A stretch of DNA of 64,000 bases from Cyanidioschyzon merolae (Eukaryota), in NCBI GenBank assembly GCA_000091205.1, contig AP006494.2; one strand, 5' to 3'. Made by a program: the position numbers and the translations under genes. The notes under the pieces are model-generated. The model made no database searches, was not told where the DNA came from, and worked only from the letters and a program-made list of their open reading frames with translations. Position 1 is the first letter of the stretch. Each line of letters begins with the position of its first letter. Shown piece after piece: positions 58,601 through 60,996 of this stretch.

Positions 58601-60996
58601 TGTCGACTCCAGCAGATGCCTCTGATCGCGTCGGTGCCCCGCGTGGCTCTCTGGACGCGGCCAGCAACACATCGAGCACCTCTTCGGTGGTGGAGATACC
58701 CACACCCCCGGAGCTGGTGTCGCGAGCACAGCAGGAGTGTCCAGCAGCGATTCCATCTTCAGATTCAAGGTCATCATCATCATCATCATCTGCGTCGTAT
58801 TCACTGTGTATTGCGGGGAGCTGTTCGCCGCACGGCACTCGGGGCGGTCACGAGTCGGTGCGGTCTACGCGAAGCAGCACACCTGCTTGCCGTATTGATG
58901 AATTTATCTCAAATACGGGTTTGTGGCATTCGTCGTCGGTTGCTGTTCAATCATTACAACGCGAAGCGAATGCAACGTTTCGGCCGACTGAGCATCCGGA
59001 TATTCCGAGTGATCACGGTGCATTCAGTGAAGCGCTGCAAGGTGCTGCACACAATGCTAACACTGGCAGCGTGGCGTGTCATGTGTCAGCTGCGCGGGAA
59101 TGCGCTACTCCAGACGTGCCAGAGGAGGTCGCTTCTTCAGATATCTATTGGGATGAGGTACTCTACCGCACTGCCGCTCTCGCGGAAGAGACCATTCATG
59201 GCCAGTCATGTAGATGTCGAGCGTCACCGCAGCAACTGAACGCGCACTCGCCAAAAACGGCACATTTAGGCTCACCTGCTCATGCGAGCGTCCAGCATCG
59301 TGGAGGCGGCACCCAGTCGGCAAGTCCCCAGACGTACGCCCAGCATTGCCCCGGTTACCCCGGTGAGGCGGTGACTCCAGGGGCGCCACCGTCCTTCCTG
59401 GACGACAACGGTAGCCTGAACTCGGTCGGAGCACCAGCTCGGATACCTACCAAGCGACAACGCGCTCACCTACGGCGAGCACAGGCGAGCGATACGGGAA
59501 CACCGGTGCAGTCGCCGAGCGGCGGCAGCCAGTGTGTCTGTACCCGTTCGAGTGCACGCTCGCACCGCGTTGCTGCGTTAGAGCACTCTCCGGCTATTTT
59601 GACGCCATTCTTGCACCACCGCGCCGCAAGAAGGCCACGGCTGGTCCGAATCAGCGACGCTGCCAGTCAGGTTGCACAGGGCACTGCTCTGAGCGACGCG
59701 CTGCCTAGCGGTAGCGCCAGTCGCTGTCTTGAGGTTGCGGAGGCGTCGCCACGAATATCCGCGAGGCTCGGCTCGGTTGCGCAGCGTCCACGCGCGGCTG
59801 GTACCCGAAGCGCACCCAACAAAAGGATCCGACGCAAGCGTCGGCGTGAACTCGTAGCCGCTTTCATCGACGATCAAGCGGAGGTCTCCAGTTCCGAAGG
59901 CAATGCCTCCGTTGATCCAGACGTTGCCGAAGCGCTTCGCGGCACCGACGGCGACTCCACTAGTCCTGATACCGATACGCCGGGCTCCCTGCGAGCATTC
60001 CTCACGAGCCAGGCGACGAGCCAGTCCACCGGTGAACAACGTCGACAGCGGGCGATGTACTGGCGCTCGTTGCGCTCGCCACAGCTCCACTCACCATTAT
60101 CAGCACAAGTGGAGCACAGTTTGACGACAACGACAACGGATCATCGTGCCTCTATCGTCCAGAGTGGAGCCTCTTCAGAAACCACATCACGACACGGTAT
60201 GCTGGCCGGTCTGAATGAGCCCAGCGAAGGCACTGCAACGGAGCCGGTTGCATCGTCTCCAGACACACCGTGTTATCGCTGTGGGCGGAGTCAGGACCCG
60301 GAGCGTACGCTCCTGTGTGACCGCTGCGACATCGAGTGCCATACGTATTGCTGTGATCCACCGTATGCATCTGTTCCCAGTGGATCCTGGTACTGTCCCC
60401 GGTGTGAGGCGTATCAGCGGAATGTACGCATCCTGGTACATTCGCGCAACCTGAACCATCCCCTACTGACCGCAGTTCGGGAGCAACTCGCGCGCTCGTA
60501 TCCATTGTCGGGTCTGGTACCGTGTGCGGGCCTCGAAGCAGACTATGTCGTGTCGCCGCGAGTTGCAGTGTTCTTTCTCGGACCCGAAAGTGGTCGCACA
60601 CCGAATAGAGAACAGTGGTTCGAGCGACTCGAACGAGCAGCTTCCCGTTACACGCGCATCTTCGTGTGTTGGGTATGGACGAGTCCAATTCAGTTGAGTC
60701 CACGAGGTCTCCCGGCCGTGCTCAACACAAATGCAACGCTCCTTCGCTGCAGCGGAATCGCTCAGGCAGCGGAACGCATCACTGACCTTGCGCTTCTCGA
60801 GCACAGAAGCGGTTACGGACTCGCCTGGGTTCCTTTGTCGTGGCCGGATCGCTTTCAAATGGCCTTAGGATTTCTTCAAAAAGCCGCCGATATGTCCTTC
60901 CTACATGCTATGCTGCTTCTGCTTCGCCACGGCAACGGGATGGACGCTCTACGGGACTGGTATCGCCACGAGGGCGCAGCAATGGCGACAACGTGA
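55648..60996 (+). CDS. FANCM: FANCM/Mph1/Hef-family DEAH helicase with N-terminal 29-aa tandem repeats, a C-terminal PHD finger and a degenerate ERCC4-like domain
   Basis: [60 protein letters not shown]...[13 protein letters not shown]...[16 protein letters not shown]...[11 protein letters not shown] is nearly collinear with the human FANCM helicase core. Helicase-C: ...[47 protein letters not shown]...[17 protein letters not shown]...WYCPRC (60271-60408). Downstream [17 protein letters not shown] resembles an ERCC4 motif. Confidence 0.8.
   Translation: [1782 protein letters not shown]
55831..56178 (+). repeat. Perfect 4x 87-bp in-frame tandem repeat encoding ([29 protein letters not shown])x4 in the FANCM-like N-terminus
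   Basis: Four identical 87-nt units; the last copy has a single g>a change. They generate the repetitive shadow ORFs 55713..56279 (-), 55783..56100 (-) and 55853..56320 (+). Confidence 0.9.

Follow-up and report, generated by a model that had tools for sequence, protein, structure and literature searches.

A PHD finger beside the degenerate ERCC4-like domain of the FANCM orthologue of Cyanidioschyzon merolae

The locus and its FANCM gene

The window examined here, a stretch of 64,000 nucleotides of contig AP006494.2 (assembly GCA_000091205.1) from the hot-spring red alga Cyanidioschyzon merolae, carries a gene for an orthologue of the DNA translocase FANCM, in which a single PHD finger stands directly ahead of a degenerate ERCC4-like domain (Table 1). 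Positions 55648..60996 form one stop-free open reading frame (ORF), the only long one of the region, and the PHD finger lies in the same frame. The mechanical start of this ORF is a GTG, located upstream of the biological start, the ATG at 55684. The encoded protein is identical (1770/1770 residues) to the C. merolae 10D protein XP_005536919.1 / BAM80883.1 (UniProt M1VIG2), currently annotated as 'similar to ATP-dependent RNA helicase', which identifies the window as nuclear DNA of C. merolae. A trypanosomatid source, which GC content and long ORFs might suggest, is ruled out by this exact match and by the homologues.

Table 1. Features of the FANCM gene and its flanks, in window coordinates
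Feature	Position	Strand	Details
FANCM orthologue, coding sequence	55684..60996	+	complete, intronless, 1770 residues plus stop
Tandem repeat, N-terminal region	55830..56185	+	in-frame, 87-bp unit (29 residues); Tandem Repeats Finder
SF2 (superfamily 2) DEAH-box helicase/translocase core	56242..57630	+	Pfam DEAD, Helicase_C
Helicase motif I	56302..56316	+	GLGKT
Helicase motif II	56602..56613	+	DEAH
Helicase motif III	56698..56712	+	TATPG
Helicase motif VI	57604..57621	+	QRMGRT
Acidic/basic block	59848..60072	+	FIDDxAE ... GSLRAFL ... YWRSLRSP; common to Cyanidiales, Galdieria and Rhodosorus FANCMs
PHD finger, C4HC3	60271..60405	+	ORF residues 1542-1586 (GTG numbering), 1530-1574 of the ATG-start protein
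ERCC4-like pseudo-nuclease domain	60427..60807	+	profile, AlphaFold2, Foldseek, alignment
Three C-terminal helices aligning with the first helix-hairpin-helix (HhH) of FANCM	60847..60969	+	AlphaFold2
Rad21/Rec8 cohesin gene, flanking FANCM upstream	51680..53506	-	
RNF157-like RING-finger gene, flanking FANCM downstream	61217..62350	-	

The helicase core was matched by the Pfam families DEAD (also ResIII) at residues 199-358 (E 1.2e-20) and Helicase_C at residues 549-661 (E 2.3e-19), and its motifs I, II, III and VI are all intact. Orthology was assigned by best matches, in a survey of the 120 best FANCM clusters, out of roughly 2500 homologues. All named homologues outside the Cyanidiales are called FANCM, Mph1 or 3'-5' DNA helicase (E 1e-155 to 1e-116), and they belong to Galdieria, Rhodosorus, chytrids, vertebrates and oomycetes; the DEAH helicase core of vertebrate FANCM is 38-42% identical to that of C. 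merolae. Judged by these matches the protein is a FANCM orthologue with an active-looking DEAH branch-point translocase, in agreement with the first-pass annotation of the locus.

Vertebrate FANCM has an MHF-binding domain, the MM1 and MM2 motifs and FAAP24 as partner; the MHF-binding domain is undetectable in C. merolae FANCM. The Pfam MHF1/2-binding domain (PF16783) gave no match at E <= 1 in the window protein, and an iterated hidden Markov model of the MHF-binding domain matched 79 of 121 FANCMs, none of them red-algal or oomycete. The same model recovered the domain in all vertebrate and most chytrid-fungus sequences. As the domain is not universal in the family, its apparent absence does not exclude the protein from FANCM membership. 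A literature search for CENP-S/X in Cyanidioschyzon returned nothing.

The PHD finger and the ERCC4-like domain

The finger at 60271..60405 is a genuine PHD, far beyond a chance match. Its zinc ligands follow the C4HC3 order with PHD spacing (found with a regular expression), and a tryptophan stands two residues before the seventh ligand (WYCPRC); ligands and tryptophan alike are invariant across four cyanidialean species. Against a gathering score of 24, Pfam PF00628 reached 31.1 bits (E 2.4e-7) with the full-length protein and 34 bits with its C-terminal 281 residues, and no RING family of Pfam was matched in the window protein. When the 58-residue PHD segment was compared with the PDB sequences by phmmer, 71 PHD fingers were returned at E <= 0.01. 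The best of these was the PHD of UHRF1 (E 1.1e-14), followed by KDM5B PHD1, ATXR5, KDM5A PHD1, BAZ2A/B, KMT2D, DPF3, CHD4, BHC80 and AIRE. The fold points the same way: when the last 248 residues were modelled with AlphaFold, the PHD region superposed on the UHRF1 PHD (3zvz) with 53% identity and a root mean square deviation of 2.2 A over 49 columns (Foldseek), and BAZ2A/B were matched as well.

The ERCC4-like domain that follows is invisible to Pfam (no match of PF02732 at E <= 10 in the C-terminal 281 residues). A profile of the 190 residues after the PHD, built from four Cyanidiales and Rhodosorus and run against the PDB, nevertheless found the C-terminal domain of human FANCM (4m6w, 4bxo, 9hjo) at E 3e-14, followed by archaeal XPF (5e-4), the nuclease domain of Hef (9e-4) and FAAP24 (3e-3); when built from the Cyanidiales only, without Rhodosorus, it still matched vertebrate FANCM C-termini. 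The AlphaFold2 model has a mean predicted local distance difference test (pLDDT) score of 81, with ten-residue blocks of 83-97 over most of the ERCC4-like domain and dips to 69, 75 and 59. Its best PDB matches in Foldseek are FANCM chains of FANCM-FAAP24 complexes (E 2.6e-9 to 2.7e-8), and XPF, Hef (1j24, E 5e-7), ERCC1, FAAP24 and MUS81-EME1 were also matched.

In the alignment the catalytic motif GDXnERKX3D is lost, VDSRE having become VHSRN, ERK having become FFL and IVEKD having become VCWVW. Since every catalytic position is replaced, the domain is a pseudo-nuclease DNA-binding module. The nuclease motif of human FANCM is inactive too, but the C. merolae version, with FFL for ERK, is the more degenerate. 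Archaeal Hef and chytrid FANCM share the two-module layout, with a helicase followed by an active ERCC4 nuclease and HhH, and differ in keeping GDXnERKX3D (seen in the chytrid rows of the alignment) and in having no PHD. The linker from the PHD finger to the first beta-strand of the ERCC4-like domain is just 6-7 residues long. At the other end, the model places helices at its residues 200-213, 217-227 and 230-240, with no second hairpin to complete the (HhH)2: in the alignment, the cyanidialean sequences stop some 35 columns short of those of vertebrates, fungi and oomycetes.

These results bear out most of what the first-pass annotation had read from the sequence. It had called the Cys/His cluster a well-formed PHD followed by an ERCC4-like segment: the cluster does fit PHD spacing and is backed by a Pfam score above the cut-off, by solved PHD fingers and by the fold, while the ERCC4-like segment is backed by its profile and fold matches. 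The protein strings cited downstream of the finger are found in the translation, and the range of residues proposed for structure prediction (about 1530-1780) fits numbering from the GTG. Within that region the model recovered the PHD fold, at low confidence, and the ERCC4-like fold. The proposed start of the finger, 60271, was retained; its proposed end, 60408, was not, as the pattern ends at 60405.

Distribution in red algae and oomycetes

The same C-terminus, PHD plus ERCC4-like domain, was found in Cyanidiococcus yangmingshanensis (P0002), an environmental Cyanidioschyzon-like alga (P0003) and Cyanidium caldarium (P0004). Given in this order, identity to the window protein is 84%, 82% and 73% in the PHD, 80%, 80% and 62% in the helicase core, 54%, 48% and 28% in the ERCC4-like domain, and 25%, 16% and 42% in the linker before the PHD. 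The finger is the best-conserved segment among the cyanidialean orthologues, and by these identities the constraint on it is at least equal to that on the motor.

Two other red algae, Galdieria and Rhodosorus, lack the finger. Rhodosorus FANCM has an ERCC4-like domain but no PHD, and Galdieria FANCM ends straight after the conserved YLRSLLSP motif. At the Galdieria partita locus (L004, 4001..7981) an ATP sulfurylase gene, read from the opposite strand, begins 96 bp past the FANCM stop, and tblastn found no PHD or ERCC4-like sequence there. Given this proximity of the next gene and the empty tblastn result, the whole C-terminal module (PHD, ERCC4-like domain and HhH) is absent in Galdieria; a truncated gene model hiding a PHD exon was thereby ruled out. 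Galdieria FANCM is thus helicase-only, as is yeast Mph1.

A profile search with the PHD plus ERCC4-like region against 1.84 billion representative proteins found the two domains adjacent only in cyanidialean clusters, among the matches listed. Below the top matches the list was dominated by multi-PHD proteins, and none of the 150 listed matches from outside the Cyanidiales has an ERCC4-like domain or a FANCM helicase, so that at detectable similarity the adjacency is confined to this lineage. A homologue search with the ERCC4-like alignment, limited by its word index, gave two Rhodosorus-like fragments, both without a PHD. The fusion probably arose within the Cyanidiophyceae, before Cyanidium and Cyanidioschyzon split.

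Among the 120 best FANCM clusters, PHD-type Pfam domains were also found in 26, which without exception come from oomycetes, including Phytophthora, Pythium, Peronospora and Saprolegnia. The parts come in the same sequence, a helicase, a PHD-type zinc module and a degenerate ERCC4-like C-terminus, as in Phytophthora infestans FANCM (P0111, annotated 'PHD-zinc-finger like domain'), where the helicase occupies residues 224-693, the PHD 1273-1317, an extended PHD (ePHD) 1334-1452 and the ERCC4-like domain 1930-2094. The module itself is different: in oomycetes it consists of a PHD, a zinc knuckle and an ePHD (PF00628, PF13831 and PF13832/PF13771) over about 180 residues, and lies some 480 residues upstream of the ERCC4-like domain, as opposed to the few residues that separate the two in C. 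merolae. Of these families only PF00628 was matched in the window protein, with no PF13831 and no PF13832/PF13771. We take the oomycete module to resemble the PZP module of BRPF and JADE. Against the cyanidialean PHD profile the oomycete PHD scored 15-20 bits, compared with 55-69 bits for unrelated PHDs. Because the modules differ in type, in position and in profile score, the two fusions are most likely independent, and a common origin is unlikely.

Oomycete and cyanidialean FANCMs share two further properties. The MHF-binding domain is undetectable in both, and in both the ERK is replaced by hydrophobic residues, which may represent convergent decay. The oomycete ERCC4-like strand EADALLSVRTAVLFL, with hydrophobic residues in place of ERK, resembles its cyanidialean counterpart. 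Other zinc fingers were seen in oomycete FANCMs as well, namely an N-terminal RanBP2-type finger in P. infestans (residues 48-74) and a ZZ finger in Saprolegnia (P0082, residues 1585-1623).

The profile comparison of orthologues suggested in the first-pass annotation therefore yielded a PHD in the Cyanidiales and a different, PHD-ePHD module in oomycetes. The view that the architecture is unusual stands with respect to vertebrate FANCM, which has no PHD, but has to be narrowed in the light of the oomycete proteins, so that the refuting condition named in that annotation, common PHD-FANCM fusions, applies in part. In full-text literature searches no account of a FANCM with a PHD was found. What is seen here is a known protein in a variant restricted to certain lineages; public domain annotations show the layout, which the literature seems not to describe, and XP_005536919.1 / M1VIG2 merits re-annotation as a FANCM orthologue, with mention of both its PHD finger and its ERCC4-like pseudo-nuclease domain.

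Elsewhere in the gene, the repeat near the N-terminus comprises 4.1 copies with 99% matches (Tandem Repeats Finder), each unit containing the motif TALEFPLCA, which is present as a single copy in the FANCMs of other red algae. Four copies are present in strain 10D, versus one, two or three in near-identical metagenome proteins; the copy number thus seems to be polymorphic within the coding sequence, with the caution that repeats may be collapsed in assemblies of metagenomes. The acidic/basic block at 59848..60072 shows 40-63% identity, compared with 16-42% in the linker that follows, in a middle region that is otherwise fast-evolving, and could be a partner-binding motif. The order Rad21/Rec8, FANCM, RNF157-like is kept in two related environmental cyanidialean contigs, and the layout of the gene recurs, with synteny, in a total of three further cyanidialean genomes or contigs.

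Ligand and possible role of the finger

The solved PHD fingers closest to that of C. merolae (those of UHRF1, KDM5, ATXR5, BAZ2 and the others matched) are presumably all readers of unmodified histone H3. PHD fingers that read H3 trimethylated at lysine 4 (K4me3), such as those of ING and BPTF, carry a cage tryptophan two residues before the third cysteine. The C. merolae finger has leucine at this position (LLCD), and an aromatic K4me3 cage is therefore not expected. A specific kinship with UHRF1 was rejected: because KDM5B and ATXR5 follow within about 30-fold in E-value, the likeness is to a class, the widespread one with the pattern LLCDxCDxxYHxxCLdPPL, and not to UHRF1 in particular.

In UHRF1, D334 and D337 bind arginine 2 of H3 (H3R2), D334A abolishing binding, while the amino group of H3 A1 is held by the carbonyls of P353 and E355, and P327 puts a bend in the peptide (PMC3214078). 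In an HMMER alignment to UHRF1 (in our own numbering), C-D-R-C-D, V-P-S and Q-D-P are kept at the H3-contact positions, so that the equivalents of D334, D337, P327 and V352-P353 are conserved in the C. merolae finger; the acidic pair, either D/D or D/E, is found in each of the four cyanidialean species. The best-supported model, and a plausible one on the strength of these residues, is that the finger would read the unmodified N-terminus of H3.

We lean towards a role in anchoring, in which C. merolae FANCM would use a single PHD finger, fused to a dead ERCC4-like DNA-binding domain, as an H3-tail tether; the finger itself probably acts as a tether to chromatin. Its ligand would be an H3 tail unmethylated at R2, with K4 probably either unmethylated or in any state, and this contact would add a second, nucleosome-directed anchor to the C-terminal DNA-anchoring module. 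The translocase may then be retained on, or oriented to, chromatin beside stalled forks, D-loops or crosslinks. An additional suggestion is that the extra contact may compensate for the undetected MHF (CENP-S/X) binding domain and for the second HhH hairpin, both of which serve to anchor FANCM in animals and fungi.

Several observations weigh against the tether proposal. The PHD part of the AlphaFold2 model reaches a pLDDT of only 53-71, a low value that we ascribe to the shallow alignment and to the fact that zinc is not modelled. Two UHRF1 positions are changed in the C. merolae finger, Q330 to T and M332 to L. To bind H3 fully, the UHRF1 PHD depends on an additional zinc knuckle ahead of the finger (PMC3214078), and such a knuckle is absent from C. 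merolae FANCM, as are the UBL, tandem Tudor, SRA and RING domains of UHRF1. The compensation idea in particular is weakened by Galdieria and Rhodosorus, in which the MHF-binding domain is undetectable and yet no PHD is present, and a short, divergent MHF-binding motif could still have gone undetected in C. merolae.

Other explanations of the finger differ in how well they fit the data. A reading of the Cys/His cluster as a RING-type E3 domain, as cysteine-rich by chance or as the artefact of a fused gene model is extremely improbable: RING and PHD do have similar eight-ligand cross-brace patterns, and the reference annotation mentions nothing beyond a helicase, but the C4HC3 order with its PHD spacing, the diagnostic tryptophan before the last cysteine pair, the Pfam result for PHD and not RING and the identity to UHRF1 rule out the former two, and a continuous ORF, conserved in four species together with its neighbours, rules out the last. 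A finger that serves mainly as a structural zinc module, without reading any peptide, and that stabilises or extends the degenerate ERCC4-like/HhH DNA-binding domain would account for the very short linker, for the truncation of (HhH)2 relative to other FANCMs and for the unusual degeneracy of the nuclease-like domain. We nonetheless regard such a purely structural role as rather improbable, since conservation extends beyond the zinc ligands to the H3-contact surface (the CDxCD pair, QDP and VPS), and since the ERCC4-like domains of Rhodosorus and vertebrates fold without a PHD. The same rather low probability is assigned to the variant in which the finger stands in for the missing second HhH hairpin or joins the dimer interface.

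The finger may also read an H3-like motif, N-terminal or internal, in a partner other than a histone, for instance a protein of the replisome or of DNA repair, or the protein that dimerises with the ERCC4-like domain. PHD fingers of the UHRF1 class bind non-histone H3-mimic peptides, the UHRF1 finger, the closest solved relative, being reported to bind PAF15 and DPPA3 besides H3 (PMC7060239; PMC9757060), and this too counts against the tether proposal. The finger moreover abuts a domain that in human FANCM heterodimerises with FAAP24 (4bxo, 4m6w, 9hjo). On the other hand, H3 is the primary ligand of the nearest class of PHD fingers (KDM5, BAZ2, ATXR5, DPF3, CHD4, BHC80, AIRE) and offers the sole universally available ARTK N-terminus, and a non-histone ligand is accordingly judged unlikely.

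If the tether proposal is extended to the oomycetes, Cyanidiales and oomycetes would have independently added H3-tail readers to FANCMs without a detectable MHF-binding domain, an instance of convergent chromatin anchoring that we put forward as a doubtful possibility. Other translocases also carry PHD-type readers, by which an SF2 motor is tethered to H3 tails: CHD3/4/5, SHPRH and, with its ADD domain, ATRX. These are Snf2-family motors whose PHDs lie within the motor region or N-terminal to it, and they have no ERCC4-like domain. PHD fingers are promiscuous as accessory domains, and the mechanism proposed here has precedents throughout, so that the significance of the fusion is moderate.

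C. merolae has a tiny genome with very few introns and supports efficient homologous gene targeting, and the histone-reader idea can be tested because the alga is genetically tractable. The recruitment of FANCM to chromatin is understood mainly from animals, via MHF1/2 and FAAP24. A naturally occurring FANCM that carries its own histone reader points to a further route of recruitment, with an independent parallel in the oomycetes. If this is true, tail reading might steer the translocase at stalled forks towards chromatin that has just been replicated, as unmodified H3 tails mark newly deposited nucleosomes.

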